A stretch of DNA of 32,134 bases from Parcubacteria group bacterium GW2011_GWA2_37_10 (GTDB taxonomy: Bacteria > Patescibacteriota > Minisyncoccia > Minisyncoccales > Staskawiczbacteraceae), in assembly GCA_000992015.1 (NCBI GenBank), contig LBSQ01000001.1:19473-51606 (forward strand), given 5' to 3'. Below are positions 1-25,146 of the stretch, one piece after another. The translations under genes were made by a program, and so were the position numbers. Numbering within the stretch: position 1 is the first letter of the stretch; each line of letters opens with the position of its first letter. Below the pieces are notes generated by a model, which did not search any database, was not told the origin of the DNA, and saw only the letters and a program-made list of their open reading frames with translations.

Positions 1-2312
1 TTTGCGTCAATCATTTGCAAAAGCTGATGAAACATTCTGTGGCCTTCATTTTTATATTCAACCAAGGGATCCTGGCCGCCATAAGTTCTTAACCTTACCG
101 AGTCGCGCAAATGGTCCATATCTGAAAGATGCGCCTGCCATAAATTATCTAAAACCTTTAAACTCACAAATTTTTCAACTTGATGCATATCTTCCTCGCC
201 GATTTCTTTTTCTTTTTTATTATAATCCCCTTCTGAAAAACCTGCTTTTTTAAAAATTTCCAAAATTTTATCTTTTAATCCGCCCGCTGGCGGATTGGCT
301 GCTAAAAATTCATATCGTTTCTTATATATAATTTCCCTGTGCTTATTCATTACGTCATCATATTCCAATAAATGGTTTCTTGCGTCAAAATTGAATCCTT
401 CAATTTTTGACTGGGCAGATTCAATGGCTCCTGAAATCATATTCGCCTGAATCGGCTCGTCATCTGGAACTTTTAAAGCAGTCATTAAGTTTTTTATTTT
501 ATCTCCGCCAAAAATTCTCATCAAATCATCTTCCAAAGAAACAAAAAATTGCGAAGAACCCGGGTCGCCCTGTCTGCCTGCTCTTCCCCTTAACTGATTA
601 TCAATTCTTCTGGCGTCGTGCCTTTCTGTGCCCACAACGTGCAAGCCGCCCAGCTCCCCAACCCCTCGAGAATCATCGAGGTTTGGCGGATTACCGCCGA
701 GAATTATATCAACTCCTCTGCCTGCCATATTTGTTGCAATTGTTACAGCTCCCTTTTTTCCTGCCTGCGCAATAATTTCTCCTTCTCTTTCATGATTTTT
801 TGCATTTAAAATTTGGTGAGGAATTCCTTTGACTTCCAATAATTTTCCCAGATACTCATTTCTTTCAACAGACCTTGTGCCAACCAAAACCGGCTGGCCT
901 TTTTTGTTCAACCCCTCTATTTCTTTTACTACGGCTGAAAATTTTCCGCTTTCTGTTTTGAAAACTTTGTCGGCCAAATCTTTTCTTACCATTGGTTTAT
1001 TGGTCGGAATTACCGCAACCTCAAGATTGTAAACTTTGTCTAATTCCTCGGCCGAGGTTATTGCGGTTCCTGTCATTCCTGATATTTTTTTATAAAGCCT
1101 GAAATAATTTTGGAATGTGATTGTGGCTAATGTCAAAGATTCCGGTTTTACTTCCAAATTTTCTTTTGCCTCAACTGCCTGATGAAGCCCGGCAGACCAT
1201 CTGCGTCCGGGCAGAATTCGGCCCGTAAATTCATCAATAATCATTATTTCTCCGCCTTTTACAACATAATCTCTGTCTTTTAAAAATAAAACTTTGGCTC
1301 GCAAAGCCGATTCTAACTGATGGGTTATTGTAATGTCGTTGTCTAACCAAGGGTCAGATCCCAAACTTTTTATAACTCTGTTCTGCCCGGCTTCAGTAAA
1401 ACTGACTGCTTTCATTTTTTCGTCAACCGTGTAATCTGCCTGCCCTGAGCCCGCCGAAGGGACTTGCCCTGAGCCCGCCGAAGGGTTTCCTTCTAAAGGC
1501 AAAACAATTTTTGCAAACTGGTAATATTTTTCCGTTGCCTCTTCTTCCTGGCCGGAAATAATTAAGGGCACGCGCGCCTCATCAATTAAAATTGAGTCAA
1601 CCTCGTCAACAATGCAAAAATTAAATCCTCTTTGCGCCATTTGAGATAAATCATAAACCATGTTGTCGCGCAAATAGTCAAAACCAAACTCATGGTTTGT
1701 GCCATAAGTAATATCTGCCTCATATGCTTCTCTTCTTGAACAAGGTTTCAAAAATTCCTGCACAACTTTAAACCCTCCTAAAATATCTCTTTCTTTATCT
1801 AAATTATTTTTGTAATTGGCATCATAAATATAACCTGATTCGTTCACAATGCATCCTACAGACAGCCCCAAAGCATCATATATTTGCCCCATCCAAACCA
1901 TGTCCCTCTTGGCCAAATAGTCGTTTACAGTTACAATGTGCACCCCGCGACTTTCTATCGCGTTTAAATAGGCAGGTAACGTAGCTGACAAAGTCTTACC
2001 TTCGCCAGTGCGCATTTCGGCAATTTTGCCTTGGTGCAAAACAATGCCCCCAATCAACTGGCTGTCAAAGTGTCTCTGGTTTAAGGTTCTTTTTGCGGCT
2101 TCTCTTACCAATGCAAAAACCTCTGGAAGAATATAATCCAGAGTTTGGCCTTTTGCCAATCTTTCTTTAAACTCTTTTGTTTTTTCTTTTAGCTGTTCTG
2201 CAGAAAATTTCTGAAATTCCGGCTCAAAAGAATTTATTTTTTCAACAATGGGCGCCAATCCCTTTATATATTTTTCATTCGGATCCCCGAAAATTTTGCT
2301 AAAAATTGACAT
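1..2312 (-). CDS. secA: Preprotein translocase subunit SecA (3' end truncated by window edge)
   Basis: Manual translation from the ATG at 2312 (MSIFSKIFGDPNEK) is open to the window edge (~770 codons). Motifs: AEMRTGEGKT (Walker A), VTVNDYLA, YGTNHEFGFDYLRDNM, IVDEVDSILIDEAR, ATNMAGRGVDI, RRIDNQLRGRAGRQGDPG, DPLVEYKNEG. No stop in the window, hence absent from the ORF track. Confidence 0.98.
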   Translation of the reverse strand, partial: MSIFSKIFGDPNEKYIKGLAPIVEKINSFEPEFQKFSAEQLKEKTKEFKERLAKGQTLDYILPEVFALVREAAKRTLNQRHFDSQLIGGIVLHQGKIAEMRTGEGKTLSATLPAYLNAIESRGVHIVTVNDYLAKRDMVWMGQIYDALGLSVGCIVNESGYIYDANYKNNLDKERDILGGFKVVQEFLKPCSRREAYEADITYGTNHEFGFDYLRDNMVYDLSQMAQRGFNFCIVDEVDSILIDEARVPLIISGQEEEATEKYYQFAKIVLPLEGNPSAGSGQVPSAGSGQADYTVDEKMKAVSFTEAGQNRVIKSLGSDPWLDNDITITHQLESALRAKVLFLKDRDYVVKGGEIMIIDEFTGRILPGRRWSAGLHQAVEAKENLEVKPESLTLATITFQNYFRLYKKISGMTGTAITSAEELDKVYNLEVAVIPTNKPMVRKDLADKVFKTESGKFSAVVKEIEGLNKKGQPVLVGTRSVERNEYLGKLLEVKGIPHQILNAKNHEREGEIIAQAGKKGAVTIATNMAGRGVDIILGGNPPNLDDSRGVGELGGLHVVGTERHDARRIDNQLRGRAGRQGDPGSSQFFVSLEDDLMRIFGGDKIKNLMTALKVPDDEPIQANMISGAIESAQSKIEGFNFDARNHLLEYDDVMNKHREIIYKKRYEFLAANPPAGGLKDKILEIFKKAGFSEGDYNKKEKEIGEEDMHQVEKFVSLKVLDNLWQAHLSDMDHLRDSVRLRTYGGQDPLVEYKNEGHRMFHQLLQMIDA
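277..296. repeat. GC-rich 20-bp palindrome inside secA (encodes NPPAGGL)
   Basis: AATCCGCC-CGCT-GGCGGATT: perfect 8-bp arms in an AT-rich context. Confidence 0.65.
1441..1485. repeat. Tandem pair of REP-like mini-hairpins in-frame in secA (PSAGSGQV-PSAGSGQA)
   Basis: TGCCCTGAGCCCGCCGAAGGG at 1441-1461 and 1465-1485 (24-bp period). Each contains CCCT-GAGCCCGCCGA-AGGG. Confidence 0.9.
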
Positions 2313-2336
2313 ATAGTTATTCTGTTATATTATACG

Positions 2337-2363
2337 AAAAACCGCATTTATTCAATGCGGTTT
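2337..2363 (-). terminator. Intrinsic terminator-like hairpin after the speD-like gene, overlapping a putative secA promoter
   Basis: Minus strand AAACCGCATT-GAATA-AATGCGGTTT then TT, followed by CG-TATAAT shortly before the secA ATG. Confidence 0.6.
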
Positions 2364-2383
2364 GAAGACAAAATGGTTTATTG

Positions 2384-2788
2384 TTATTCTTTTGTGGCGC
2401 CGCGGAGGGTGGTATTAAAAACAAGGTTTTGCGCCTTAAAAAAGTTTTTTGTGAAATCAACTGCTTTTTGCTGGTCGTAAAATTTGCAGGAAAATATATC
2501 AATGAAAACAGAGTTATCTGTTTCAGCAAAGTGTCCCGATATTAAAGAAGTTTCTATCAATTGAGCTAAGCTGTATCCCGAAACTTTCGGGTCTTCGCCA
2601 AAACGCGCGACTACCGGCTCTCCGAATCTTTTCATGTCTATTAAATCGCAAACTTCAATGGCATATTGTTTTATTTTTTCTCCGCTGCTTATAGTTTCGT
2701 GGTCGCACCCAAATAAATCTATTGAAGTGAGCATTCCCCATACGCCCCTACGTTCATACTCACTTTCAGAAATTGTGTTATTATTCAT
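2384..2788 (-). CDS. speD: S-adenosylmethionine decarboxylase-like (SpeD family) pyruvoyl proenzyme
   Basis: WGMLTSIDLFGCD, GYSLAQLIETSLISGHF and FIDIFSCK match the short AdoMetDC fold. Start placed at ATG 2788; the TTG at 2824 is part of a -35 box. Confidence 0.8.
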   Translation of the reverse strand: MNNNTISESEYERRGVWGMLTSIDLFGCDHETISSGEKIKQYAIEVCDLIDMKRFGEPVVARFGEDPKVSGYSLAQLIETSLISGHFAETDNSVFIDIFSCKFYDQQKAVDFTKNFFKAQNLVFNTTLRGATKE

Positions 2789-2796
2789 CTTTTTCA

Positions 2797-2824
2797 ATTT
2801 TATATTATGCCGAATATCTGTCAA
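2797..2824 (-). promoter_or_regulatory. Sigma70-type promoter for the speD-like gene
   Basis: TTGACA (2824-2819), 16 nt, TAAAAT (2802-2797). Only 8 nt separate the -10 from the ATG. Confidence 0.6.
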
Positions 2825-3213
2825 GGTGTGAATAAATCGCGGCGGCGAGGACGACGCGCTAAATCATTTTTTTTTAATTTATATTTTTTAATCTCCTGCT
2901 GTAACTTGTCTTTAATTTCCACGACGGTCAAAAACAAATCGTTTCCGGCTGATTGCGCCATTATTTTTTTACCGGGCAATAAAATTCTTGCCTCTGACCT
3001 GAAAACATTGCCTTTGTTATGGTGTTTACTTTCTTTTTCAATCTCAAAAAAAACTTCTGCTAATGTTTTTTTATCCCGCCTGGAATTCGCCAAAGGGTCT
3101 TCCTCGCGCTTTAAAACATCTATAAATTTTTTAAGACTTCCGATTTTTTCTTCAATAAAACTTTTAAGCGGCGCTGTTAATTCAAGATTTTTTGTTCTGA
3201 TTAAAATTTTCAT
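2821..3213 (-). CDS. hpf: Ribosome hibernation promoting factor (HPF/RaiA), short form
   Basis: MKILIRTKNLELTAPLKSFIEEKIGSL...DLFLTVVEIKDKLQQEIKKYK is typical of the S30AE family; hpf next to secA is a common arrangement. Confidence 0.88.
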   Translation of the reverse strand: MKILIRTKNLELTAPLKSFIEEKIGSLKKFIDVLKREEDPLANSRRDKKTLAEVFFEIEKESKHHNKGNVFRSEARILLPGKKIMAQSAGNDLFLTVVEIKDKLQQEIKKYKLKKNDLARRPRRRDLFTP

Positions 3214-3216
3214 AAT

Positions 3217-3233
3217 TTTTACCGTAGCGATAT
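3217..3233 (-). promoter_or_regulatory. Start-proximal conserved motif, copy 1 (before hpf)
   Basis: Minus strand ATATCGCTACGGTAAAA-ATT-ATG; near-identical copies at 13540-13556 and 26106-26122. Function unknown. Confidence 0.6.
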
Positions 3234-3241
3234 AATTATTT

Positions 3242-4153
3242 TCATAAAATTTGCACCTCTGTCTCTAATGATACGTCAGAAGTTTTTTTAACTTTTTTTT
3301 GAACCAATTTAATTAAAGCCAGAACATCTTTGGCTTTGGCGTTTCCTAAATTAATAATAAAATTTGCATGCTGCAGAGATATCTGGGCTCCACCTATTTT
3401 TTTGCCCTTGAGCCCGGCTTTTTCAATTAATTCTCCTGCTCGGATAACCTTACCCCTTTTTTCAGGATTCACAAAAACCGAGCCGGCAGAGGGAAATGTT
3501 ACGGGGTGGCTATTTTTTCTGTAACTCATAAATTTATTCATTCTTCCTTTTATTTCCTCTTTATTTCCTTTTTTAGGCGTAAAGGTCGCAGAAATAATTA
3601 TCAAATTTTTTCTCTTTTTAAAGATGCTATTTTTTAATGAAAACTTGCACTGCTCTTTTGAAAAAAATTTAGTTTTCAGGTTTTTTATATCTAACGCCTC
3701 AATGCTCTCTATCCAGTCTGAAACTTTTTCATTAAATGCCTGCGCGTGCCCATATACGGCTCCGCCAACTGTTGCCCCCGGAATTCCGGATGCCCATTCA
3801 AATCCTGAAAAACTATTTTCTGCCGCGCAATCCGCTAAATCATAGAGGGTGGTTCCGGCGAAAGAAAAAATCTTGTCTTCTTCCGCTTTGCACCCTAAAA
3901 TTTCAATTTTTACAACCAGTCCGTTAAACCCTTTGTCTAAAACCAGAACATTGCTGCCGCCGCCCAATATGAAAACAGGCAGTTTAAGCTCTTTTGCGAT
4001 TTTTACGGCGCAAAGTAAATCTTCTTTAGATTTTGCAACAAAAAAATATTTGGCCGGTCCGCCGATTTTAAATGTTGTATGGTTCTTTAACGGAATATTT
4101 TTCTGGACATCCGGTAATTCTTTTTTCAATTTTTCTAAAATTTGGTCTTCCAT
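3242..4153 (-). CDS. murB: UDP-N-acetylmuramate dehydrogenase
   Basis: LKNHTTFKIGGPA, LGGGSNVL, GIPGATVGGA, PSAGSVFVNP, HANFIINLG, LETEVQ. Confidence 0.96.
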   Translation of the reverse strand: MEDQILEKLKKELPDVQKNIPLKNHTTFKIGGPAKYFFVAKSKEDLLCAVKIAKELKLPVFILGGGSNVLVLDKGFNGLVVKIEILGCKAEEDKIFSFAGTTLYDLADCAAENSFSGFEWASGIPGATVGGAVYGHAQAFNEKVSDWIESIEALDIKNLKTKFFSKEQCKFSLKNSIFKKRKNLIIISATFTPKKGNKEEIKGRMNKFMSYRKNSHPVTFPSAGSVFVNPEKRGKVIRAGELIEKAGLKGKKIGGAQISLQHANFIINLGNAKAKDVLALIKLVQKKVKKTSDVSLETEVQIL

Positions 4154-4154
4154 A

Positions 4155-5806
4155 TTATCCGTCGGATAAAAAGAAATTTATTTTTATTCTTGTTGCTGGG
4201 CCCACAACGCCTGTTCCCGAGAACAGCCCAAGGGGCGCTAAAATTTCTACCCTATATTTTTCCTGAAAACGAATTACGGCTGATCTGGTTAAACTGCCAA
4301 AATATCCCGTCACAAAACCTTCTGGATAAATGTCCACCCCCTGCGATTTTAAAAAAGTTTGCAGACATTTAATCTCGCTATTGTTTGACATTCCAAAAGA
4401 AAGATTATTATTTATCTTAGAACAAGCGCTATTATTGCTATTACCGCCATTTCTCTGGGCAATTATATCCGCAATTTGTTTTTTAAGAGAAGCTATTTGG
4501 TCTAATAATTTTTGAATTAAAACCTGGTCTTCTTGAGACGTCTGCCCCTCAATAGAAACGGTAAAAGTATATGGGTATGTAAATTCAAAACCGTCGAATC
4601 CTTCAATCTTTGTCTGCAGAGAGGGAATAATAATCAGGGAATTGTAGTCTGCGCCAAAATTTTTAATAGTGATTTCTCCCTGTTCTTTTTTATCAAGCTT
4701 TAAAAATTTTATTGAATAATTATTATCCTTGTCAAAAACAATATATGGAACTTGGAAATTTAATCCGGCCGAGCTTGAAAAATTTAGTTTTAAATCGCAC
4801 TATTTCCGACCAAAGGCAAAAAATTAAGCGTGGAATTCAGCCTGAGGTTTTTTAAATTAGCATTTAAATAACAATACTTTATATCAAGAGAACAGTCGTT
4901 GACAACAGATGTTATCGTCCAATTCGTAAAAATCTGGGAAAAATCTTCTTTAACTCCATTTCTCTTCAGAGCATAGTTTATGCTGTTTATGCCGGTAAGC
5001 TTTGATTTTAAGGAATCGACCAGAATATCTATGCCATAATGGTCAATTAAATAATGGGTAAACAGGCTCACAACCCCATAATCATATTTACTTTCCTGCC
5101 ATTCGGTCAAAGAGTCTGTCGGCTTTTCCAAAAAAGTCTGCGCTCTTTTTTGAAGGTTGCTTCCGGAATAAGAAGTGTCATAACCCAGAATATTTGAAGA
5201 ATAATCTGCCCTTGCTTCATTTAACCAGACCTCTTCTTGGACATCAAAAATTTTGTCTTTTTGGTTAAAGGTAATCAGGTGCGCGAGCTCATGGGCCAAA
5301 AATACCTTTATTTCCGGGTTATCAATCTGACTTATCGGCAAATAAAGCATTTCTCTTTCGTTTGAATCAGAAATCTGTAGTTTTAAATATTCATCTGCAG
5401 AACGGAAATAGCCTCCTGTGCCCTCTTTCATTGGATGAAACAGAATGGTAATTTTTGCGTCTCCGTCAACCCCGGGTTTCCATTCGGAACCGAAAACAGA
5501 AGTCAGTGTTGGATAAATCCTGTTAGAAAACTCTGAAGACAAAGAATCTAAATTTAAAAGAATTTCGTTCTGTTTTGCCGGCATTTGAGAATCCAACCAC
5601 TTTTTTTCTACATAAAAATAAATATTAGAAGTGGTTTTAACCAGCGTGGCTGTTGTTTGAGACCTGGCTGACGAGTCATAGTTGCTGTCTATATAAAAAT
5701 TTACGCTGTCGCCGGAATTAACAGCCCTAACGGCTGAAGGCGCGAGTAAAATAAAAAAGAGGGCAAGTATTAAAATTTTTTTGTTTGACACTCCAAAAAA
5801 AATCAT
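4155..5806 (-). pseudogene. Frameshifted secreted zinc metallopeptidase (HExxH) with C-terminal peptidoglycan-binding domain
   Basis: 5806-4790 has a signal peptide, HELAH and WLNEA. A second frame is open 4799-4155 with no start codon until 4391 (DLKLNFSSSAGLNFQVPYIVFDK...LLDQIASLKKQIA...CLQTFLKSQG...GYFGSLTRSAVIRFQEKY). The span (1652 bp) is not a multiple of 3. Confidence 0.75.
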
Positions 5807-5879
5807 GAATTAAATTTTTTTATACAACGGGCCTGATGCTTGCTTTAATATTAACACGATAAAGCGATGCGAGGAAATT

Positions 5880-7748
5880 TTATCCCTTAAACGGCTTATA
5901 ATGAGGCAAAAAACTTCTCAAAATACTGATTATTTTTTCGTCTTGAGGACTGCCTACGATTTTTTTGAGTTCTTCTATCTTTTTCTCTAATTTTACTGAA
6001 TCTATATTGGAAAGATTTGCCATAAAAATTTTTTGGTTTTGCGTCGCAACGGTACCTTCCTCTGCCGTAAGTATTTCTTCAAAAAGTTTTTCACCCGGCC
6101 TTGGTTTTGTAAAAACAATGGCGATGTCTTTGTCTAATTCAAGCCCGGACAATTTAATCATTTCTTTAGCAAGGTCTAAAATTTTAACCGGTTCTCCCAT
6201 GTCTAAAACAAACACTTCCCCTCCTTTGCCCATAGACCCTGCCTGCACAACAAGCAGGCACGCTTCAGAAATCAGCATTAAATATCTTTTCATTTTAGGG
6301 TGGGTAACTTCTACGGGCCCCCCTTTTCTGATTTGCTCCTTGAACGTCGGCATCACGCTTCCTCTGCTGTTTAATACGTTTCCGAATCTTACGGAAATAA
6401 ATTTAACATTATTTTTTTGGTTATATGCCTGGCATATCATTTCGCCAACTCTTTTTGTGGCGCCCATCACCGAAGTCGGATTTACCGCTTTGTCCGTTGA
6501 AATAAAAATAAATTTTTCAACATTGGTTTCCAAACTGACTTGTGCCAAGTTTTTTACGGCAAAAATATTATTTTTTACCGCTTCATCGGGTTGGGCTTCC
6601 ATTAAAGGAACGTGTTTATATGCCGCCGCATGAAAAATAATTTTTGGCCCAAAGTTTTTAAAAACTTCTTCTATTTTTTTTCTGTCTAAAATATTTGCTA
6701 CTAAAGATTTAATCTCCAAGTGCGGAAACTTATTTTTTAGTTCTTCTGAAATATTAAAAATCCCGGTTTCGTCTTGGTCTAAAAGCATAAGCAGAGACGG
6801 ATTAAATTTTGCGGTTTGCCTTGATAATTCAGATCCAATTGAACCCGCGGCGCCAGTTATTAAAACCACTTTATCTTTTATAAAATTTTCAATTTGTTTT
6901 ATTTCTAACGAAACCCGTTCTCTTCCCAATAAATCCTCCACCCCAACATCTTTGAGGCTGCGCAAAGATAAGTGGCCGTTGATAATTTCGGTTATCGGCG
7001 GTGTAATTTTAATTTTTTTTAATCCTGCCTTCTTTCCATTTTCAATTGCATTTTTAATTGTTTTTCCGCTTGCCGACGGCAGTGCAATAACCATTTGTTC
7101 AATCTGATATTTTTTTACAATTTTTTGGATATCTTCAATTTTTCCTAAAACTCTAAGCCCATGAATCGTTATGTTTTGTTTTATGGAACTGTCATCAATA
7201 AATCCAACCGGAGTATACGGGCTGTTTACAGCCGAAAACATGCTTCTTAAAATCTGCTCTCCGGCATCTCCCGCTCCGATAATAAGTATTTTTTCCTTTT
7301 TCAGCAACCTGTTGGACCCGATAATGTGCAAATAAATTCTTTTGGCAAAACGCAAGGCTCCGCACAAAACAAATACAAAAATATAACTTATAAAAATAAT
7401 TGACCTTGGGAAAGTTGCGAAGGAGGTAAAATCTTTGGAAATATAAATCGCAGCTCCCAAAAACAAGAAGGAAATGCTTGTAGCCTTAAACAAAGAAATC
7501 AACTCGCTGGCTGAAACATAAGACCACGAAAAAGAATAAAGCCCCTGAGAATAAAATATAGGGATAGTAAAGATTATGGCGAGCCCGGCGGTTTCAAAAA
7601 TAAAGTGTAAATATTGCGCAGGCACGAGGCCGTCAAATCTTATTAAAAAAGCCAACCAAACCGAAACAGCAATTAAAATTACGTCTGTCAAAATAAAAAA
7701 TATATTGCGTGTTACAATTGTTTTTTTAAATAGAGAATGAAAGTTCAT
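5880..7748 (-). CDS. Membrane-bound UDP-GlcNAc 4,6-dehydratase (PglF/CapD/WbpM family)
   Basis: Four N-terminal TM segments, GAGDAG, EDLLGR, ITGAAGSIG, HAAAYKHVP, STDKAVNPTSVMGATKR, VRFGNVL, RPGEKLFEE. Confidence 0.95.
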   Translation of the reverse strand: MNFHSLFKKTIVTRNIFFILTDVILIAVSVWLAFLIRFDGLVPAQYLHFIFETAGLAIIFTIPIFYSQGLYSFSWSYVSASELISLFKATSISFLFLGAAIYISKDFTSFATFPRSIIFISYIFVFVLCGALRFAKRIYLHIIGSNRLLKKEKILIIGAGDAGEQILRSMFSAVNSPYTPVGFIDDSSIKQNITIHGLRVLGKIEDIQKIVKKYQIEQMVIALPSASGKTIKNAIENGKKAGLKKIKITPPITEIINGHLSLRSLKDVGVEDLLGRERVSLEIKQIENFIKDKVVLITGAAGSIGSELSRQTAKFNPSLLMLLDQDETGIFNISEELKNKFPHLEIKSLVANILDRKKIEEVFKNFGPKIIFHAAAYKHVPLMEAQPDEAVKNNIFAVKNLAQVSLETNVEKFIFISTDKAVNPTSVMGATKRVGEMICQAYNQKNNVKFISVRFGNVLNSRGSVMPTFKEQIRKGGPVEVTHPKMKRYLMLISEACLLVVQAGSMGKGGEVFVLDMGEPVKILDLAKEMIKLSGLELDKDIAIVFTKPRPGEKLFEEILTAEEGTVATQNQKIFMANLSNIDSVKLEKKIEELKKIVGSPQDEKIISILRSFLPHYKPFKG

Positions 7749-8905
7749 TTTATTTTTTGCGCTAAACTTATTGCTTCTTTCAAATTTTTAACCACAAATT
7801 CTATTTCCTCTTCTTTCAAATTATTAAAAAGGGGCAGCGCTAATGTTCTTTTACTGACATTTTCTGCTATTGGAAAATCGCCCTCTTTGTATCTAAACTC
7901 TTTTTTATAAAACGGCTGCGAATGGATTGTTTGAAAATAATTTCCGCATTGGATTCCCCTCTCTGCCATCTTTTTAATTATCACATCCCTCTTACCGGAT
8001 AATTTCCCGCTTAATTTTATAACATAAACAAACCAGCTTAATTTGTTTCCGGATTTTACAAAAGGAACTTCAATCCCTTCAATTGATTTCAGCCTTCTAT
8101 TATATATGCCAGCAACTTTTGCCCTTTTACCTAAAATTTCTTTGATCCGCTTCATTTGAGCAATTCCCATGGCGCAGCTCATCTCGTCCAATCTGTAATT
8201 ATAACCCAGCCTTATATGCTCTAACCATTTTCCATTTTTTTTCTCTCTGCCCTGATTTGCCATACTGCGGCAACTCTCTGCAATTTTGCGATTATTAGTT
8301 AGAATCATTCCGCCTTCTCCGGTTGTTATCTGCTTATTTGGATAAAAGGCATAAATTGCGGCATCTCCAAAACTTCCGCATTTTTCGCGCTTAGCGCGTA
8401 GTGAGCCCGTCGAACTATACTCTGACCCCAGCGCTTCGGCTGAATCCTCTATCAAAAATAATTTATGCTTTTTCACAATTTTCTGCAATTCGTTCCAATC
8501 AGCGGGCTGAGAAAAAACATCAACCGCTAAAATTGCCTTTGTTTTTTCGGTAATTTTTTCTTCTATTTTTTTAACGTCAATATTAAAAGTTTTTTCGTCT
8601 ATATCTATGAAAACGGGTTTTGCTTTTTCAAACAAAATACAATTTGACGAAGCTATAAAAGAAAAAGGAGTTGTAATTACCTCGTCTCCGTCTTTAATGC
8701 CCAGCGCCCTTATAATAAGATGCAATCCGCTTGTTCCGCTGTTCACTGCCACGGTAAACTTTACTCCGGCGAAATCAGCCATTATTTTTTCAAACTCTTT
8801 ATATTTTTCTCCCAAACTCAAAGAAGAGGTTTCTAAAACCTCTGCCACGGCTTTCTTCTCTGAATTTGTTATGTCCGGTTTTGACAGCGGAATTTTATAT
8901 TTCAT
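7745..8905 (-). CDS. DegT/DnrJ/EryC1/StrS PLP-dependent sugar aminotransferase
   Basis: NSGTSGLHL, IEDSAEALG, AFYPNKQITTGEGG, GYNYR. Confidence 0.95.
   Translation of the reverse strand: MKYKIPLSKPDITNSEKKAVAEVLETSSLSLGEKYKEFEKIMADFAGVKFTVAVNSGTSGLHLIIRALGIKDGDEVITTPFSFIASSNCILFEKAKPVFIDIDEKTFNIDVKKIEEKITEKTKAILAVDVFSQPADWNELQKIVKKHKLFLIEDSAEALGSEYSSTGSLRAKREKCGSFGDAAIYAFYPNKQITTGEGGMILTNNRKIAESCRSMANQGREKKNGKWLEHIRLGYNYRLDEMSCAMGIAQMKRIKEILGKRAKVAGIYNRRLKSIEGIEVPFVKSGNKLSWFVYVIKLSGKLSGKRDVIIKKMAERGIQCGNYFQTIHSQPFYKKEFRYKEGDFPIAENVSKRTLALPLFNNLKEEEIEFVVKNLKEAISLAQKIK
8386..8417. repeat. Composite of two mini-hairpins in-frame in the DegT gene (SSTGSLRAKR)
   Basis: CGCGC-TTA-GCGCG (8386-8398) abuts TAGT-GAGCCCGTCGA-ACTA (8399-8417); the latter shares its core with the secA repeats. 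Confidence 0.85.
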
Positions 8906-9299
8906 TTTTGAGAAACTTTATCACTTTTGCCGGCGCGCCATAAGCAATCACATTATCTGGAATGTCTTTGTTGACAAAACTATATGCTCCAATAATAGAA
9001 TTTTCACCAACAGTAACTCCCGGCATAATTGTAGAATGCGTTCCTATTTTGCAATTCTTTTTTAAAACCACTTTTCCTTTTTTATTATCAATTGTAGAAA
9101 CAGAATAAATTGAGCAATGGGACCCAATCTGAACACCAACGGTAATTTCAATCCCGAACTTTGCATTCATATAAGTAAAAGCGCCAATGTCTGTATTTTT
9201 GCCCAATTTAAGATTTTCCGGGTTTTTAACAACCCAATTATATTTTGTCGGTTTGCCGTCTTCTATTTCCGGCGCTAACCAATTTTTAAATCTGCTCAT
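8895..9299 (-). CDS. Left-handed beta-helix (hexapeptide repeat) acyltransferase
   Basis: VQIGSHCSI, CKIGTHSTIMPGVTVGENSIIGAYSFVNKDIP, GAPAKVIK. Confidence 0.9.
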   Translation of the reverse strand: MSRFKNWLAPEIEDGKPTKYNWVVKNPENLKLGKNTDIGAFTYMNAKFGIEITVGVQIGSHCSIYSVSTIDNKKGKVVLKKNCKIGTHSTIMPGVTVGENSIIGAYSFVNKDIPDNVIAYGAPAKVIKFLKNEI

Positions 9300-9964: not shown

Positions 9965-10025
9965 AAAAATAACTTATCTTTTTTATTATTCTATATTATC
10001 AGATTTTTGCCTTAAATCAACATAC

Positions 10026-10063
10026 AAAAAAAGGCTGATGCCCGACAAGAGACATCAGCTTTT
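10026..10063 (-). terminator. Intrinsic terminator of the PP2C-like cassette
   Basis: Minus strand GCTGATGTCT-CTTGTC-GGGCATCAGC followed by C and T7. Confidence 0.8.
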
Positions 10064-10067
10064 ACTT

Positions 10068-10946
10068 TTACAACAACTTGATTTCCACTGCAGAAGCCTC
10101 TGGCCAGCCAGTTATATGAGATAGAGAGTCCTCGGTCTCATCTCGCCATTGCAGGACAGTCGGTAAACCACCACTCGCGTAAAGACTCCAAACATTCAAA
10201 GCCGTTCCTTCTTTGCGCGCGGGATTCATCGCCGCTGAAGTAAGCAAACCGTCACTGCCCAGTAGAATAAACTGCGGACGAGATAAACAGTTGATTTTCT
10301 TTACCATCCAGCACTCTTTCAGGGCCGGATCGCCGTTTAACAGGGGATATCCGCCCTTCCCGATGTTCTTGTTGGCGCAACGGATTTTCCTGGCTGAAAA
10401 GATCGGAAAGTAGATATCCCAAGCGCGGCCTTTGTCACCCTCTGTCTGCTTAAAACACTCCGCGATAGTAGCATTCGCTTCCTGCTCGTCTTTGAAAGCG
10501 GCCTGGTCAAACCCGGTAAGAAAAGATATACTATCGTTATACTTGACAAGGGCAAAACAATCCCCAGCGATAACGAAGGTAATTTTTGCCGGACCGAAAT
10601 GGCAAACAGCAAAGCTTGCCCCGCCAACATCTTGCCCCCTTGTAGGATCCTTTCCCTGAACATTGTGGGCCCGGCGAATTCGGCTGTTAGCATTAAGCGC
10701 AAATTCCTCAACATCAACCGGAGCGGACACAGACATCCCAGCCGAACAAAACTCTTTTGTCGCCACTTGTCCTCCGGTAAGACCTCCAGGATATATCAGC
10801 GGCGGATTGCTGGGGCTGTATCCAGCTGAAACACCATCAGATACCCCGAAAAGACCTGCCTGCGCGTTGACGAAAGCCCCATCTTCTTTAGGCGCTTTTT
10901 CGTCAGATGGCGCTCTGTAGAAAGACTTTGCTGAAAAAAATTTCAC
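10068..10946 (-). CDS. PP2C/PPM-fold phosphatase-like protein
   Basis: KEDG (motif 1), FGVSDGVS (motif 2), IAGDC (motif 5), LLGSDGLL (motif 8). GTG start with SD GAGAGG 6 nt upstream; visibly higher GC than neighbours. Confidence 0.7.
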   Translation of the reverse strand: MKFFSAKSFYRAPSDEKAPKEDGAFVNAQAGLFGVSDGVSAGYSPSNPPLIYPGGLTGGQVATKEFCSAGMSVSAPVDVEEFALNANSRIRRAHNVQGKDPTRGQDVGGASFAVCHFGPAKITFVIAGDCFALVKYNDSISFLTGFDQAAFKDEQEANATIAECFKQTEGDKGRAWDIYFPIFSARKIRCANKNIGKGGYPLLNGDPALKECWMVKKINCLSRPQFILLGSDGLLTSAAMNPARKEGTALNVWSLYASGGLPTVLQWRDETEDSLSHITGWPEASAVEIKLL

Positions 10947-10985
10947 CTGAAACCTCTCTTTCTATGGGTTGGTGGATAGTTGCAT

Positions 10986-11034
10986 ATTTTCAAAAATCTA
11001 CTAACATCCTATAATAAAATTATAAATTTGTCAA
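10986..11034 (-). promoter_or_regulatory. Sigma70 promoter plus boxA-like element for the PP2C-like gene
   Basis: TTGACA (11034-11029), 17 nt, TAGGAT (11011-11006), then GATTTTTGAAAAT (10998-10986). Confidence 0.65.
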
Positions 11035-11050
11035 TCATTGACTCCTGCAT

Positions 11051-11752
11051 TTACACTTTATCGGCGGAATTAATAATTTCCAAACTTTTCGGACCGCAAT
11101 TAAATAATAAGTCAATTACGGAAAGGTTTTCTAAAAACGGCGCAAATCTTTGAGAATAAACCGGGTGCTCAAATTCTGAAAAAATAAGTTTGAGATTGTT
11201 TTTTTTCAACTTTTCTTCCTCAATATAAAGTTTCCCTCCAACCCCCGAAAAATAGGTATCAGCCTTAAATTTTTTGCATAATTCAATTATCAAATCGGTT
11301 TTATGGCCTTTAAAATCAAAGCCTGAACTTTTAATAATGGGGGTCTTAATTTCTAACTTTTCTTCCAAATAGCAAATAATGTTTTCATTTAAATCAGAAA
11401 GTTTTTGCCATTTTTGGGAATATAGTTTTTCAAAAAAATCACAATAAACATCAAAAAATGGGGTTTTTTTATAGTTAAAATAAATGGTTTTCCAGTGCTG
11501 TCTTGCCCAAGGGATGGAGTTATCTATTTCTACTTCATTTATTTTTTGATATCCTTTACCACTAGTGACAACCGGCACCGTGAGCCAAAGCCACCCCTGA
11601 GAGTTAGAAGAAGTTCTAATCCGATTCCTATTCTGAAAACTTCCATCGTAAAACTGAACATGGTCAACTAAAATAAACTTGTCAGCCTTTGCTATTTTAT
11701 AAAAAAAGCCGAGGTAAGGAAGGTATTCTGGCTGATGCGCTGAAATAATCAT
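11051..11752 (-). CDS. wbqC: WbqC family protein
   Basis: SAHQPEYLPYLGFFYKI, FQNRNRI, WLTVPV, YFSGVGG, LSVIDLLFNCGP. Confidence 0.92.
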   Translation of the reverse strand: MIISAHQPEYLPYLGFFYKIAKADKFILVDHVQFYDGSFQNRNRIRTSSNSQGWLWLTVPVVTSGKGYQKINEVEIDNSIPWARQHWKTIYFNYKKTPFFDVYCDFFEKLYSQKWQKLSDLNENIICYLEEKLEIKTPIIKSSGFDFKGHKTDLIIELCKKFKADTYFSGVGGKLYIEEEKLKKNNLKLIFSEFEHPVYSQRFAPFLENLSVIDLLFNCGPKSLEIINSADKV

Positions 11753-12372
11753 TTTATGTTTGTTGGTGGAGGGAGATTAATCCCATCTTTGCCATAAACT
11801 CCTTTTCTGGAAAGAACGGCAAAAAAACCAATAAATAATATTTTAAAATCCAGCCATAAAGACTGGTTATCAACATACCATGCATCATATTCTAATCTTT
11901 TTTCCCACGACACCAGCCCCCTGCCCTTAATATCCACCAGGCAGACCAATCCAGGTTTTACTAATAATCTTTTCTTCCATAATTCATTTAAAAAACTGTC
12001 TTGATTCGGATACCTAGGCAATGGCCTTGGTCCGACCAAACCCATATCTCCTTTGATTATATTAATCAACTGTGGCCATTCGTCAAGCGTCCATTCCCTT
12101 AAAAATTTACCTAATTTTGTTATCCGAAAATCATTTTCCGCAGAAGCCAAACCTAGCCCCATATTCTCCGCGTTTCCTACCATTGTCCTAAATTTCCAAA
12201 TTCTAAATATCTTCCCGTTTTTGCCTAACCTTTCTTGTTTAAAAAACACCGGTCCTTTTGAATCCAATTTTATTAGAATAGCCATAAAAACAAAAACAGG
12301 ACTTAAAATAATAAATATGATTAAGGCCGGTAGAAAGTTTGCCGAATTTCTAACAAATTCCTGAAAATTCAT
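11749..12372 (-). CDS. Monotopic phosphoglycosyl transferase (PglC-like initiating sugar transferase)
   Basis: GPVFFKQERLG, KFRTM, LDEWPQL, GDMGLVGPRP, YDAWYV. Confidence 0.92.
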   Translation of the reverse strand: MNFQEFVRNSANFLPALIIFIILSPVFVFMAILIKLDSKGPVFFKQERLGKNGKIFRIWKFRTMVGNAENMGLGLASAENDFRITKLGKFLREWTLDEWPQLINIIKGDMGLVGPRPLPRYPNQDSFLNELWKKRLLVKPGLVCLVDIKGRGLVSWEKRLEYDAWYVDNQSLWLDFKILFIGFFAVLSRKGVYGKDGINLPPPTNIK

Positions 12373-14782: not shown

Positions 14783-14804
14783 TTTATTAACTTACTATCG
14801 CGGG

Positions 14805-15761: not shown

Positions 15762-15767
15762 AATTTT

Positions 15768-18934: not shown

Positions 18935-18937
18935 ATG

Positions 18938-20669: not shown

Positions 20670-22225
20670 GTTGTTAAAAAATCTAATTTTTTAGAAAAAA
20701 ACTTAACTATCTTGTTGTTTGAGGCCCAATTAATTCCAAGCGGCGCTAAACAGAAAAGAGATATAAAGGCTGGAATCCTAATTCTGGTTGTTATGCCAAA
20801 ATTGGCTATAAAAACAGAAAGTACGCTCAATAATAATATACTGAAAAAAAGCAGGGTAAAAGCATGCGACCTAATAGGTTTTTTTATTCCTTTTATTATA
20901 AAAAATATAGAAAAATACAAAAGAATGGTTTCGGGTAAAATTAGAAAATGCCTCAAATACCTCATTTGCCAAGGAAAAGGACCTAATGAAGCATAAATAA
21001 AAGATGTTAAAGAATTTTTTAAAAAGGTAAAGGGATTTTCAAATCCCGTCTTTACTATTACATTAGATCCTCTACCTCTTTTTGTAATAGGATTATCAGT
21101 AAAGCCAGAAGGTTTGGGTTCAGTGGCCACAGAGGGTTCAGTGGCCACAGAGGGTTCAGTGGCCACAGAGGGTTCAGTGGCCACAGAGGGTTCAGCGGCC
21201 ACAGAGGGTTCAGCGGCCACAGAGGGTTCGACAATCACAGGGGGCTCAGTAGTTGGCGGAACTTCAGGATTAGCAACAGCAAGAAATTCTCTATAATAAG
21301 TAATCATTTTTTGATTAATAAAGGCCTTCATAAAATTAATTCCAAAATATCCTGACCCGTTAGATGTTCCTCCTGAAATATTAGGCAAAAAACCCAGAAG
21401 AATAATAATTATAATCCCATAGATTAATCTTTTTTTTATTTTTAAATTTGAAAATAAAAACCAACAAACAATAAAAGTTAAAAGGGCAGTAGTGGCGATA
21501 TAAAGACGAAAATGGAATAAAACGCCCAAAGCAATATAAAAAATTAGAAATTTGAGCCAAGAAAACGCTTTAAGTAATTTTAAAATTGCTAACAACGCAA
21601 TTGAACATAATAAGACGACCAAAGCGTCTTTCAACAATAAACTTCCGAAAAAAAGTAAACTGGGATAAATGCTTACAATTAATCCCGCAAGAAAAGCTTC
21701 TTTTTTTGAACCGCCAATCTCCATAACTGTTAGATAAACAAAAATAACTAAAAGGGCAACTAACCAAGCATTAAACATTTGACCAATAAACGCTTGCGGC
21801 AATGTCAAAGTATAAATATAACCAAGAATAACTGGATAATTATGACCAACGTCCAATCCCTGTAAGGAAAAATTTCCCTGACGAATCCTTTCTGATATCT
21901 GTCGAGCTACAACGTCATACTCTGAATAATCTCCAGCGCCCCCGCTAAACGGCTGAAATCCAGTGTAATGAACAAAGAATACCGTTCCAATGTGGATTAA
22001 AAAAGCAATTAAAAAAAGTATATATACTGTTTTTGTTTTAAAACCTATTTTTTTAAGTATTAAAAAGGTGGTTGCTGTTAAAAAAACAATAAAGACGACC
22101 CCTACGGCCAGCGTTTTGTCAAACAAAGAAACTGCCGCCAAAAATAAACAGCTCGAAATGATTGTTGTTATTAAATGAGGAGAAGAAAAACTTTCTTTCA
22201 ATATAGATATAATTTTTCTGAACAT
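20666..22225 (-). CDS. Polytopic membrane protein, putative GT-C-fold polysaccharide polymerase/ligase (Wzy-like)
   Basis: More than 10 hydrophobic segments, GDYSEY loop, LLKD, PFPWQ, NFGITTRIR; cluster context. Confidence 0.6.
   Translation of the reverse strand: MFRKIISILKESFSSPHLITTIISSCLFLAAVSLFDKTLAVGVVFIVFLTATTFLILKKIGFKTKTVYILFLIAFLIHIGTVFFVHYTGFQPFSGGAGDYSEYDVVARQISERIRQGNFSLQGLDVGHNYPVILGYIYTLTLPQAFIGQMFNAWLVALLVIFVYLTVMEIGGSKKEAFLAGLIVSIYPSLLFFGSLLLKDALVVLLCSIALLAILKLLKAFSWLKFLIFYIALGVLFHFRLYIATTALLTFIVCWFLFSNLKIKKRLIYGIIIIILLGFLPNISGGTSNGSGYFGINFMKAFINQKMITYYREFLAVANPEVPPTTEPPVIVEPSVAAEPSVAAEPSVATEPSVATEPSVATEPSVATEPKPSGFTDNPITKRGRGSNVIVKTGFENPFTFLKNSLTSFIYASLGPFPWQMRYLRHFLILPETILLYFSIFFIIKGIKKPIRSHAFTLLFFSILLLSVLSVFIANFGITTRIRIPAFISLFCLAPLGINWASNNKIVKFFSKKLDFLTT
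21116..21223. repeat. Coding 18-bp tandem repeat x6 (EPSVA[A/T])
   Basis: GGGTTCAGYGGCCACAGA units at 21116, 21134, 21152, 21170 (T) and 21188, 21206 (C); two degenerate units follow to ~21259. Confidence 0.97.
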
Positions 22226-22248
22226 AAATTTTTATGTATTTTTAATTT

Positions 22249-23157
22249 TTATATCTGACTCTTAAAATAATCTTTAATTCCTTTTTTTATATCATATTCT
22301 GGAGAATATCTCAAAAATTCTCTTGTTTCTGTTAAATCTGCCTCTGTGTTTTCTTGATAGTGCTCATATGGGTTATCAATGTATTCTGGCTCAAGATTTA
22401 CGCCAAACGTTTTGTTAAGATTCTTTATTATTTCATTGAATGTTGTTGCCTTGCCTGCGCCAATATTAAAAACACCGCTTTTTTCGCAATCCATAGCCAA
22501 TAAATTTGCTTTAACAACATCTTTTACATAAACTTGGTCTCTTTTCTGCTCCCCGTATTTGAATATTCTCGGCCTCTTGCCTTCTTTCATCTGTAAGTAT
22601 AACTGCCAAATCATACTTGCCATTTTGCCTTTGTATTTTTCGCCTGGGCCATAAACATTAAAATAACGGAGCCCGACAATGTGAAGATTGTTAAAATTTT
22701 CACGGGCGATGTTGTCTGCCTTTAATTTAGAAAGCCCGTATACGTTGGCAGGAACTTCATTTTTGCCTACCAACATTGGAGGCGAAGAGTGGCCGTAAAC
22801 TGCTGCCGAGGAAGCATAAATCAGTTTGGCTCCGCATTTTATGGAAAAATCAAGAACATTTTTAAATCCATCTACGTTGTTGAGCATCATTTTTTTTTCG
22901 TCAAAAACCGTGGTATCTGTAATAGCGGCTTGGTGAAAGATAACATCCAGTTTATAAAAATGTTTGTTAAGATCTATTTCGGCAATGTTTCCGGAAATAA
23001 TTTCTCCTTTAAATCCGACTAAATTATCTGAATTCCCCGAAGAAAAATTATCAATAATATAATATTTGTTGTCGGGATATTTTTCCTGCAATGTTTTAGT
23101 TAGGTTTGATCCAATAAATCCAGCTCCCCCTGTAATTAAAATTTTTTTATTTTCCAT
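22249..23157 (-). CDS. rfaD: ADP-L-glycero-D-manno-heptose 6-epimerase
   Basis: ITGGAGFIGSN, FHQAAITDTT, YASSAAVYG, YGLSK, GLRYFNVYGPGE..KGKMAS, YQENTEAD; adjacent to heptose genes. Confidence 0.85.
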   Translation of the reverse strand: MENKKILITGGAGFIGSNLTKTLQEKYPDNKYYIIDNFSSGNSDNLVGFKGEIISGNIAEIDLNKHFYKLDVIFHQAAITDTTVFDEKKMMLNNVDGFKNVLDFSIKCGAKLIYASSAAVYGHSSPPMLVGKNEVPANVYGLSKLKADNIARENFNNLHIVGLRYFNVYGPGEKYKGKMASMIWQLYLQMKEGKRPRIFKYGEQKRDQVYVKDVVKANLLAMDCEKSGVFNIGAGKATTFNEIIKNLNKTFGVNLEPEYIDNPYEHYQENTEADLTETREFLRYSPEYDIKKGIKDYFKSQI

Positions 23158-24187
23158 TGTTTAAAATAATATTTACGGCATCTAAAATATTTTTGACATG
23201 ATAATTCGGTTCTAATTTCAGATCAACAGGCATTTTTTTACCGATCTTTATGGTTTTTATGTTTGCCTCTCTGCCAGCAATAATATCTCTGAAATCGTCC
23301 CCCACTATCCAACTTTTGCTTAAATTCAAACCAAAGTCCTCGCCAGCCTTTAAAAGCATGCCTGGCTTTGGCTTTCTGCAAGGACAATTGTCATTTGGCC
23401 CGTGCGGACAGTAATAAATTTTATCAATTCTCACCTCGTTTTTTCTGAGTTCTTTTAGCATCCAATCGTGCAATTTTTTTAAATCTTTTTCATTATAATA
23501 TCCTCTGGCTATTCCAGACTGATTAGTTGCAATAATGATTTTGTGATCAGTTTTTGATAATTTTTTCAAAGCGGAAATCGCGCCGAGAACAAATTTAAAA
23601 TCATCTATTTTGTGAATATATTCGGGTTCGTTTATATTTATAGTCCCGTCGCGGTCTAAAAAAACCGCTTTCACTTCGGGTTTAAAATGAATATTATTAG
23701 TTTTTTGTCCCGCTTGGCGGGATTCCGCTACGCGGGACATCAACCCGCTGGTTGAAAAACCCTGTTGCCATTTTAGAATATGAATTTTTCCCCCATTTTC
23801 TTCAACAACACCCCTTTCAACGCAATTTTTACCCCAGTCAGAACCGTTACAATGAATATCCGGCTTTATTTTTTTTAAAATTTCTTTTGGATTGATTTCA
23901 TCAAAATGGACAACATAATCAACATGTCCAATAGCAGACAGAACTTCCGCCCGCTCTTTTTCCGAATTTACGGGATGATTGGGCCCTTTATATTTTTGAA
24001 CAGAGTTATCGCTGTTTAAAAGAATGGCTAAAATATCCCCCTGCGCTTTTGCCTCTTCCAAAGATTTAATGTGTCCCAAATGCAGAATGTCAAAACTGCC
24101 GTTATAAGTAACGACTTTTTTCCCCTGCTCTTTAAGGTTTTTTACGATCTCAACAATTTCTCCTTGTCTTTTAATCTTCGGATTCAT
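23147..24187 (-). CDS. gmhB: Fusion of heptose-1-phosphate nucleotidyltransferase (RfaE2/HldC-like) and heptose-1,7-bisphosphate phosphatase (GmhB)
   Basis: N-terminal GSFDILHLGH, NSDNSV..YKGP, GFSTS; C-terminal AVFLDRDGTIN, TNQSGIARG, CPH...CPCRKPKPGM, VGD. Start placed at ATG 24187. Confidence 0.9.
   Translation of the reverse strand: MNPKIKRQGEIVEIVKNLKEQGKKVVTYNGSFDILHLGHIKSLEEAKAQGDILAILLNSDNSVQKYKGPNHPVNSEKERAEVLSAIGHVDYVVHFDEINPKEILKKIKPDIHCNGSDWGKNCVERGVVEENGGKIHILKWQQGFSTSGLMSRVAESRQAGQKTNNIHFKPEVKAVFLDRDGTININEPEYIHKIDDFKFVLGAISALKKLSKTDHKIIIATNQSGIARGYYNEKDLKKLHDWMLKELRKNEVRIDKIYYCPHGPNDNCPCRKPKPGMLLKAGEDFGLNLSKSWIVGDDFRDIIAGREANIKTIKIGKKMPVDLKLEPNYHVKNILDAVNIILNNGK
23706..23739. 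repeat. Double mini-hairpin in the interdomain linker (SRVAESRQAGQ)
   Basis: TCCCGC-TTG-GCGGGA (23708-23722) plus CCGC-TAC-GCGG (23725-23735); outer inverted repeat TGTCCCGC/GCGGGACA. Confidence 0.8.
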
Positions 24188-24204
24188 TTTTTTTTTATTA
24201 GACA

Positions 24205-24233: not shown

Positions 24234-24235
24234 TA

Positions 24236-25136: not shown

Positions 25137-25146
25137 ATTGATAATT

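Follow-up and report, generated by a model that had tools for sequence, protein, structure and literature searches.

GC-rich micro-repeats in frame within intact genes of a Parcubacteria group bacterium, probably spread as DNA

REPs (repetitive extragenic palindromic sequences) are thought to be mobilised by REP-associated tyrosine transposases (RAYTs), and the HUH chemistry of the IS608 and RAYT systems fits blunt insertion combined with a small stem-loop. Insertion sequences (IS) of the IS200/IS605 group make no target duplication, recognise small imperfect hairpins, possess a transposase gene or at least two distinct end hairpins, and insert beside a fixed tetra- or pentanucleotide. The small dispersed repeats (SDRs) of the Nostocaceae are reportedly mobile, 21–27 nt long, often nested, and located mostly outside genes; to our knowledge, they have no known transposase and belong to one cyanobacterial family. 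Rickettsia palindromic elements (RPEs) are palindromic elements of about 150 bp that lie in frame and were described from Rickettsia (Ogata et al., 2000, via PMC10969869). In a survey of REPs (Di Nocera et al., 2013; PMC3733652), stems range from 5 to 13 bp, and intragenic REPs with GTAG and CGTC tags are reported from several species; the CGTC type has 8–9-bp stems, 4–5-nt loops and a CCA tail, and no dedicated transposase was found for it. The GC clusters of yeast mitochondria are, according to Wu and Hao (2015; PMC4478555), GC-rich hairpin units of, for example, 42 nt. Here we analyse a 32,134-nt stretch of the genome of Parcubacteria group bacterium GW2011_GWA2_37_10 (contig C1, positions 19473–51606 of genome G000; hereafter the window), in which short GC-rich repeats sit in frame inside intact protein-coding genes, together with the counterparts of these repeats elsewhere.

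The source genome (716,262 nt in 40 contigs, 36.6% G+C, 94% complete) belongs to a lineage with ultra-small genomes. A sequence-only reading of the window had pointed to four GC-rich sites in three intact genes, and all four were recovered at their coordinates, on the coding (minus) strand and in frame. The sites comprise at least two unrelated kinds of element, which that reading had lumped together. Kind A is a 24-nt unit with a conserved loop, and kind B consists of perfect GC hairpins of 15–20 nt. Most probably the sites represent copies of GC-rich, non-autonomous micro-repeats, which came into the genes as DNA and persisted because they left the reading frame intact and encoded harmless loops.

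Two of the sites lie in secA (positions 3–2312, minus strand; Pfam SecA_DEAD, SecA_PP_bind, P-loop_SecA and SecA_SW), the 3′ end of which is beyond the window. At 1440–1484 (minus strand), the 24-nt unit CCCTTCGGCGGGCTCAGGGCAAGT stands twice in tandem (period 24 nt), forming a 45-nt insertion, evident from the sequence and from gaps in orthologues, which adds 15 residues (PSAGSGQ-V-PSAGSGQ). In an alignment with the SecA of 19 relatives (65–79% identity to the window protein), 18 have a gap at this place. The exception is G002, a genome of another genus, with one 8-residue copy at that position. The insertion is also visible as nucleotide-level gaps in the relatives G007 and G009 and is absent from the solved Thermotoga SecA structure 3JUX. 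In the DegT/DnrJ/EryC1-family aminotransferase gene (7745–8905, minus strand; Pfam PF01041, E 6e-117), a 24-nt insertion at 8393–8416 (minus strand), AGTTCGACGGGCTCACTACGCGCT, encodes SSTGSLRA. It is a diverged kind-A copy, in which the core TTCGACGGGCTCA is retained and the 3′ part is changed. These eight residues are missing from all ten orthologues, including the one from the same genus, as well as from perosamine synthase 3BN1. An AlphaFold2 model (mean predicted local distance difference test score, pLDDT, 76; predicted template modelling score 0.80) places the insert within residues 162–177, a predicted coil between two strands with pLDDT <50; two further segments of the model are equally uncertain. 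The third host gene (23147–24214, minus strand; Pfam PF01467 and HAD families) encodes a fusion of a cytidylyltransferase-like, rfaE2-type domain with a gmhB-type HAD phosphatase, and the same type of fusion was found in four relatives. In its inter-domain linker, at 23708–23737 (minus strand), lies a 30-nt insertion of two tandem 15-nt hairpins, TCCCGC-GTA-GCGGAA and TCCCGC-CAA-GCGGGA, which adds ten residues (SRVAE-SRQAG) absent from all four fused orthologues and folds strongly (dG −14.4, z −6.3).

The remaining site, secA 277–296 (minus strand), is a perfect GC hairpin with an 8-bp stem and a 4-nt loop, AATCCGCC-AGCG-GGCGGATT on the coding strand (dG −9.1, z −3.8), and encodes N-P-P-A-G-G-L. 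In the alignment of 19 relatives the length of this loop differs in nearly every one, and some have other repeat-like inserts there; therefore no clean indel can be defined at this place. Clean in-frame insertion relative to orthologues was thus found for the 45 nt in secA, the 24 nt in DegT and the 30 nt in the rfaE-gmhB linker. Other repeat-like in-frame inserts were observed in the SecA of relatives L006, L009, L010, L015 and L020, where peptides of the FQFSIFNFQ type share the loop with window site 277–296; the SecA of G023 has two long inserts, of ~40 and ~16 residues, elsewhere in the protein. Of the sites labelled GC-rich hairpins, only the rfaE insert and secA 277–296 are strong ones; the label was not confirmed for the TGAGCCCGYCGAA unit, and the 5-bp DegT hairpin CGCGC-TTA-GCGCG (8386–8398), which consists of the last 6 nt of the insert and host codons, is unremarkable. 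The 36-nt DegT stretch comprising insert, hairpin and flank (dG −6.4, z −0.9) is indistinguishable from shuffles. One further in-frame GC-rich insertion, missed earlier, lies in the ORF (open reading frame) at 2807–3235: 27 nt at 3071–3097 (plus strand; 56% G+C), encoding LSRLEFAKG, are absent from the orthologues in G007 and G009 and were assigned to no family. A separate observation concerns the DegT orthologue of a same-genus relative (G001:C53, L034), in which an in-frame insert of ~440 residues lies within one open frame of 828 residues, directly after the conserved PNKQ(V/I)T motif beside TGEGG, and is intein-like in appearance.

On the coding strand, kind A (the second secA site and, diverged, the DegT site) reads CCCTTCGRC-N2-3-GCTCAGGGCARG, or in segments CCCT-TCGRC-N2-3-GCTC-AGGG-CARG, which makes 24 nt or eight codons. 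Its core has 57 matches in the 716-kb genome (about 55 copies): in 22 the spacer is 2 nt long, in 35 it is 3 nt, and two palindromic places enter the count once for each strand. The string TGAGCCCGYCGAA occurs 12 times in the source genome against ~0.01 expected, as estimated from base composition. Single, tandem (secA) and nested copies were found, the last being 48 nt long with a second unit inside the loop of the first; in seven of seven such composites, aligned by eye, the inner unit is placed after CCCTTCGGC plus A or G of the outer one. Sub-variants are lineage-specific, e.g., the form with the GGCGGG spacer is dominant in G000 and rare in other relatives. As single-stranded DNA, the unit has a dG of about −2 kcal/mol (z from +0.2 to +0.9 against shuffles); because it folds no better than shuffled sequence, kind A is not a palindromic element. 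A set of 72 distinct copies from G000, G007 and G009, retrieved by the core alone, was examined for covariation. At the second closing pair, 63 of the 72 show Watson-Crick pairing (C-G in 41, T-A in 18, with 13 core variants among these, and G-C in 4). With shuffled partners the mean was 33.4 and the maximum 45, and 63 was reached in none of 2000 trials. The third pair, next outward, is at chance (23/72). The main family, which had earlier been called palindromic, is instead a 4-bp co-varying stem closing a conserved loop of 11–12 nt and followed by a 3′ tail of 4–5 nt.

Sequences close to kind A were also noticed at tRNA genes outside the window. The gene for tRNA-Gly(GCC) contains TTCGACTCCGCTCA, a 14-mer identical to a kind-A variant elsewhere in the genome. 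A repeated fragment ~40 nt 3′ of tRNA-Leu(GAG) and tRNA-Arg(TCT) contains TGGT-TCGACTACGCTC-ACCA, in which the 14-mer TCGACTACGCTC equals a kind-A variant and the 4-bp closing stem is again of a different sequence. These sequences (G000:C10, 95–169, 482–501 and 1425–1444; C18, 38–57) may point to the origin of kind A or may be a matter of chance.

Motif frequencies were compared with codon shuffles of 526 non-overlapping ORFs of at least 150 residues (77% of the genome; 30 shuffles of each type), from which secA was omitted because it contains N. The kind-A core occurs 44 times in these ORFs, against 0.5 with synonymous-codon and 0.2 with codon-order shuffles. Hairpins with all-G/C 5-bp stems number 43, against 17.4 ± 4.0 (maximum 27) and 12.3 ± 2.8 (maximum 18), respectively, and perfect hairpins with stems of at least 8 bp number 25, against 3.85 (maximum 6) in 20 shuffles. 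The excess over codon-shuffled controls on which the sequence-only reading depended was therefore found for both kinds of motif. These figures bear on the proposal that the peptides are native low-complexity linkers that have converged, or that the sites are assembly artefacts. The peptides are indeed rich in G, S, A, P and Q, like ordinary linkers. Nevertheless, nucleotide identity extends over 21–24 nt in unrelated genes and involves rare GC-rich codons, copies of one DNA sequence use three frames in sense and two in antisense orientation, with others lying outside ORFs, and the synonymous shuffles gave 0.5 copies for 44 observed. Short contigs from four public DNA runs end at or before the repeats (X3 at 1461, X1 at 545); public-run contigs span the first secA site and reach into the second, and in the independent genome G002 a copy occupies that place of secA. 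The shuffles and the use of several frames contradict this proposal, which is exceedingly improbable.

Further evidence that the repeats were added as DNA comes from comparison with all of G009 and most of G007, against which every host ORF was searched by tblastn. Among 48 host ORFs with the core, 35 distinct places showed a gap of at least five residues lying exactly over the element, 16 of them in both relatives and 19 in one, in agreement with the earlier view of dispersed micro-repeats added in frame. The commonest gap was eight residues long (10 of the 35 places), and 16 residues were missing at four places. Some places are occupied in a relative: GatA in G009 and three in G007 (e.g., C27_3939 and C28_8798); the copies in GatA of G009 and at C13_1262 of G007 appear partly decayed. 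At two loci with conserved flanks (10/12 or better on each side), giving three comparisons, the insert was exactly 24 nt with a unique placement and no flank repeat. Left flanks of kind-A inserts vary (..gaa, ..agc, ..aaa), and no common flank was seen. A wider survey covered all insertions of at least four residues in best HSPs (high-scoring segment pairs) of at least 45% identity, with three of eight flank residues identical on each side. It yielded 30 insertions absent from both relatives, 27 of them with a G+C content of at least 0.5 and 24 of at least 0.55, compared to 0.369 for coding sequence; ten contain the strict kind-A core. In the reverse direction, 66 of 110 inserts in G007 had a G+C content of at least 0.55, mostly owing to kind-B hairpins, and in G009 the bias was nearly lacking (9 of 62).

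By the longest spanning ORF, 31 copies of kind A lie in sense, 15 in antisense and 2 in no ORF; with ORFs of at least 150 residues the numbers are 31, 13 and 13 outside. One antisense frame has a stop, so that a ratio of 3:2 is expected and the overall bias is modest. A replication-oriented signal of the Chi or KOPS type was considered and rejected: where gene strand and regional GC skew disagree, seven copies follow the gene and one follows the skew, i.e., orientation tracks the host gene. The two spacer classes differ in what they encode. Copies with the 2-nt spacer are 13 in sense and 4 in antisense, and 12 of the 13 sense copies read PSAGSGQ. Copies with the 3-nt spacer mostly read PFGAAQGK (11), less often PSAxLRA (4) and LRRGSGQ (3). 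Each class thus favours its own codon phase, and in both classes charged and bulky residues are fewest in the preferred reading. A process acting on DNA would be blind to phase; since the preferred phase differs by class, selection on the peptide is the probable cause. Both strand and frame bias fit selection for harmless loops of G, S, A, P and Q.

Kind B comprises TCCGCC-N4-GGCGGA and TCCCGC-N3-GCGGGA hairpins, single or in tandem. In all three genomes CCCGC..GCGGG is the most frequent of the 32 all-G/C 5-bp stems that are possible (16, 39 and 13 in G000, G007 and G009, respectively), and its opposite polarity, GCGGG..CCCGC, numbers 0, 0 and 4. CCGCC..GGCGG (6, 22 and 15; opposite polarity 3, 1 and 0) takes second place in G007 and G009; in G000 it comes third, after CGCGC..GCGCG (8). 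In G007, CCGCCAGCTGGCGGA hairpins, which have the loop AGCT in place of the AGCG of secA 277–296, are in-frame inserts encoding PPAGG. A local origin of the secA 277–296 and rfaE hairpins, through slippage and template-switch 'palindrome correction' within variable loops and not as copies of a mobile family, is unlikely. Such an origin would fit the varied sequences of GC hairpins within ORFs, the variation of the loop at secA 277–296 in every relative, and the make-up of the rfaE insert, in which a 15-nt unit is duplicated in tandem. It would not account for the polarity bias, which goes beyond composition, nor for the near-identical units (CCGCCAGCTGGCGGA and GGGATCCCGC..GCGGG) in frame at other genes of G007, and the rfaE insert is a clean 30-nt addition relative to four of four orthologues; spread as micro-repeats remains the preferred reading of kind B. 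A 48-nt double-hairpin unit, VPMTSSSRIHDSKAVG at G000:C15 ~4919 and IPTTKSSKIHDGKAIG at C26 ~8244, was additionally seen in two unrelated genes; it is in frame at both and absent from both relatives.

The pattern CCTTCGRC-N2-3-GCTCAGG was found in 19 of 31 close relatives (40 copies in the source genome itself, 29 in a relative of the same genus) and in 148 of 401 genomes of the phylum; the reversed pattern was found in 0 of 401. The richest phylum genomes have 75, 52, 46, 41 and 40 copies, the last being the source genome. A stricter 21-nt kind-A pattern was scanned against one genome per species (596 Gb) and matched at least 120 loci. By record title, the matches listed belong to Acidobacteriota, Chloroflexota, Cyanobacteriota, several classes of Proteobacteria, Planctomycetota, Verrucomicrobiota, Saccharibacteria, Peribacteria and others, and an actinomycetotal record among the matches listed has five tandem copies with a 24-nt period. 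From about ten to a few tens of chance matches were estimated for 596 Gb, and the listed loci were therefore checked further. At these loci, GGC or AGC follows in 87 of 129 copies, the free spacer is strongly non-random, and the same 843 kb contain 47 extra core copies compared to none for the reversed core. The main family is thus not lineage-specific, as had been supposed, and extends over many phyla. A complete genome of another family, G337, carries a longer variant with the stem ATCCT/AGGAT, of which 41 of 43 copies lie outside ORFs of at least 120 residues (counted over the first four-fifths of its sequence). This longer variant (L264–L303) forms intergenic arrays with periods of 68 and 52 nt (e.g., 108194–108466 and 775339–775443), which sit between genes for pilin-like membrane proteins.

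Another explanation is that the 24-nt stem-loop is retained for a function in the cell at the RNA or DNA level, for instance in mRNA stability or as a binding site for a protein, its spread being secondary and its translation incidental. The conserved loop and co-varying stem across distant lineages, the excess of sense orientation within genes, and the mostly intergenic arrays of G337 are in line with this, and REPs are held to act as RNA elements (PMC3733652). Nevertheless, the genes that host it are unrelated, in-place decay is suggested for some copies (GatA in G009, C13_1262 in G007), and 253 of the 401 phylum genomes have no copy, with whole families lacking it (f36, 0/23; f39, 0/11). 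There was no Rfam match at the gathering threshold in the window and 14 loci, and around the second secA site, with E values up to 10, no RNA family was found except for a chance match to XIST. We consider a signal role unlikely as the principal explanation; it is compatible with the spread of kept micro-repeats as DNA and does not exclude it.

As the sequence-only reading had stated, no mobilising enzyme is encoded in the window. Its suggestion of a RAYT link was not borne out: the genome has four Y1 (HUH) transposase-like genes, and none is bracketed by these repeats. That IS200/RAYT-like Y1 transposases of this genome mobilise them is rather improbable. Points that would suit it are the number of Y1_Tnp matches above the Pfam cut-off (four in the 716-kb genome and 8 in the same-genus relative with 29 copies), the blunt insertion without duplication, and the small stem-loop with its conserved loop. 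However, three of the four Y1 genes each have a private hairpin on either side, with 2–4 copies in the genome, and neither kind A nor CCGCC/CCCGC hairpins flank any of the four. Among the 31 relatives, Y1 genes and copies do not go together: G014 has 19 copies and G010 has 8 without Y1, and G018 has four Y1 and no copy. A Y1 match is likewise lacking in the two richest of the sampled phylum genomes, G401 (75 copies; completeness 98%) and G337 (52 copies, a single contig; completeness 99%). The evidence thus speaks rather against the genome's own Y1 genes as the copying agent of the micro-repeats. One Y1 transposase-like gene (G000:C16, 14778–15611) has its own flanking hairpin in frame inside it (VVSPTYN).

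Other candidates were also considered. TnpB was not found in the source genome. The single RVT_1 match was rejected as a mobiliser because it belongs to a cassette resembling a diversity-generating retroelement, and two large serine recombinases of the genome were set aside as being without a link to the repeats. Genes adjoining the copies in G337, likewise examined as candidates, encode pilin-like membrane proteins. The retroelement-like cassette (G000:C21 ~10300–12312; L181 1–2016) comprises an ORF with a GC-rich C-terminus resembling a variable repeat and a reverse-transcriptase fragment of 173 residues, in which the motifs LGNLTSQ and YADD occur; a Y1 transposase-like gene bracketed by GTGGAGGACGGGCCTCCAC comes directly after this fragment.

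The micro-repeats could have reached their present distribution as follows. Copies would arise anywhere in a densely coding genome, and selection would remove those that shift the frame, bring in a stop codon or encode a disruptive peptide. The survivors would be mostly sense-strand copies, located in linkers and surface loops and encoding PSAGSGQ or PFGAAQGK. The copying agent probably acts in trans and, like HUH enzymes, which also make no duplication on insertion, would recognise the stem-loop in single-stranded DNA; this is favoured because insertion is blunt and the stem co-varies. Of the mobile micro-repeat system proposed from the sequence, the dispersed, in-frame and patchy occurrence and the lineage-specific sub-variants hold; the palindromic label does not hold for the main family, and the link to RAYTs is not supported.

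Several points weigh against this explanation. The 24-nt unit of kind A is thermodynamically no hairpin, and its recognition as a structure depends on covariation, since the fold is not above shuffles; related copies can inflate covariation, though the T-A pairs accompany 13 different cores. The ratio of 31 sense to 15 antisense copies is not far from the 3:2 of open frames, and translation of the inserts is assumed from the reading frames. Residence in frame is not a property of the element, because the copies in G337 are mostly intergenic. Insertion, as opposed to deletion in the relatives, is based on two relatives and the solved structures, and the direction of change is weaker at the 19 places gapped in one relative only. 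Blunt, duplication-free insertion was seen at only the two loci with clean flanks, and no mobilising enzyme was identified among the Y1, TnpB, reverse transcriptase and serine recombinase candidates.

A bolder proposal, which we regard as possible but tentative, is that the 24-nt unit is an undescribed pan-bacterial mobile element, among the smallest mobile DNA, copied without duplication by an enzyme other than a known transposase or by host repair. Together with a few hairpin families, it would then be the main source of new loops in the proteins of ultra-small Patescibacteria, SecA and GatA included. If the units do move, mobile DNA can be as small as eight codons, can remodel essential proteins in the most reduced bacterial genomes, and, in the case of the kind-A unit, crosses the borders of phyla. 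The discovery of what copies such a 24-nt stem-loop duplication-free would bring either a new mechanism or a novel role for a familiar enzyme. In practice, such repeats break short-read assemblies, produce spurious similarity between unrelated proteins in searches and inflate families of 'hypothetical proteins'.

Some other features of the window were recorded. A search for tRNA genes across it found none. Two parts have a raised G+C content, 0.48 at 10001–11000 and 0.42–0.46 at 24001–26000, compared to ~0.35 nearby; one of these blocks spans a 292-residue ORF at 10068–10946. Contigs of two public runs (X1 and X3) have 67 additional letters between positions 4798 and 4799. Just upstream of the window, toward the 3′ end of secA, a run of N lies in the C-terminal part (X in the translation), and the gene therefore crosses a scaffold gap.

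Literature on the kind-A motif strings or peptides was not found, though the supplementary tables of PMC3733652 may contain related units; a search for literature on such in-frame repeats in Patescibacteria (Candidate Phyla Radiation) likewise returned none. Compared to miniature inverted-repeat transposable elements, kind A has a 4-bp stem as its only inverted repeat, lacks a flank repeat at the two clean loci, and has no parent IS that could be found (no TnpB, and Y1 genes with other ends). It shares with the IS200/IS605 group the lack of target duplication (two loci, three comparisons) and a small stem-loop; unlike that group, its units contain no transposase gene. DNA uptake sequences are species- or genus-specific 9–12-mers that are enriched through uptake bias and arise by point mutation, whereas here whole units are inserted, in many phyla. 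Nearest in size and behaviour, when compared by description, are the SDRs as they are said to be: the unit is 24 nt long, nested forms have 48 nt, and 35 places are polymorphic. Unlike them, kind A occurs in many phyla and, in G000, mostly within genes.

The GC clusters of yeast mitochondria (PMC4478555) are likewise spread in an AT-rich genome, with units that merge and shuffle, a constrained stem and a mechanism described as unresolved; they differ from kind A in a putative target-site duplication (AG), a mostly intergenic location, their presence in an organelle and an unrelated sequence. With REPs and REPINs (REP doublets forming hairpins), as presented in PMC3733652, our repeats share short GC-rich stem-loops in tens to hundreds of copies that are single, paired or clustered and sometimes genic and translated, and with the CGTC type the lack of a dedicated transposase. 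Kind A differs from them in its 4-bp stem, its conserved loop of 11–12 nt and the absence of a GTAG or CGTC tag (it starts with CCCT and ends with CARG). It is also not a stable imperfect palindrome of about 20–40 nt, a feature that kind-B hairpins do have, and some CCCGC hairpins of kind B begin with CGTC or TGTC. Kind A flanks no Y1 gene of this genome. While REPs lie predominantly outside genes, 44 of the 57 core matches in G000 lie in ORFs of at least 150 residues; the longer variant of G337, with 41 of 43 copies outside ORFs of at least 120 residues, behaves like extragenic REPs. With RPEs (PMC10969869), the repeats have in common the in-frame residence in unrelated, intact and often essential genes of a small AT-rich genome, a recurring peptide, and host proteins that are apparently still functional. 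They are distinguished from the ~150-bp RPEs of Rickettsia by units of 15–48 nt, the main one of which is non-palindromic, and by their presence in many phyla. In sum, the micro-repeats resemble known kinds of element, being RPE-like in their residence and intragenic-REP-like in their form.

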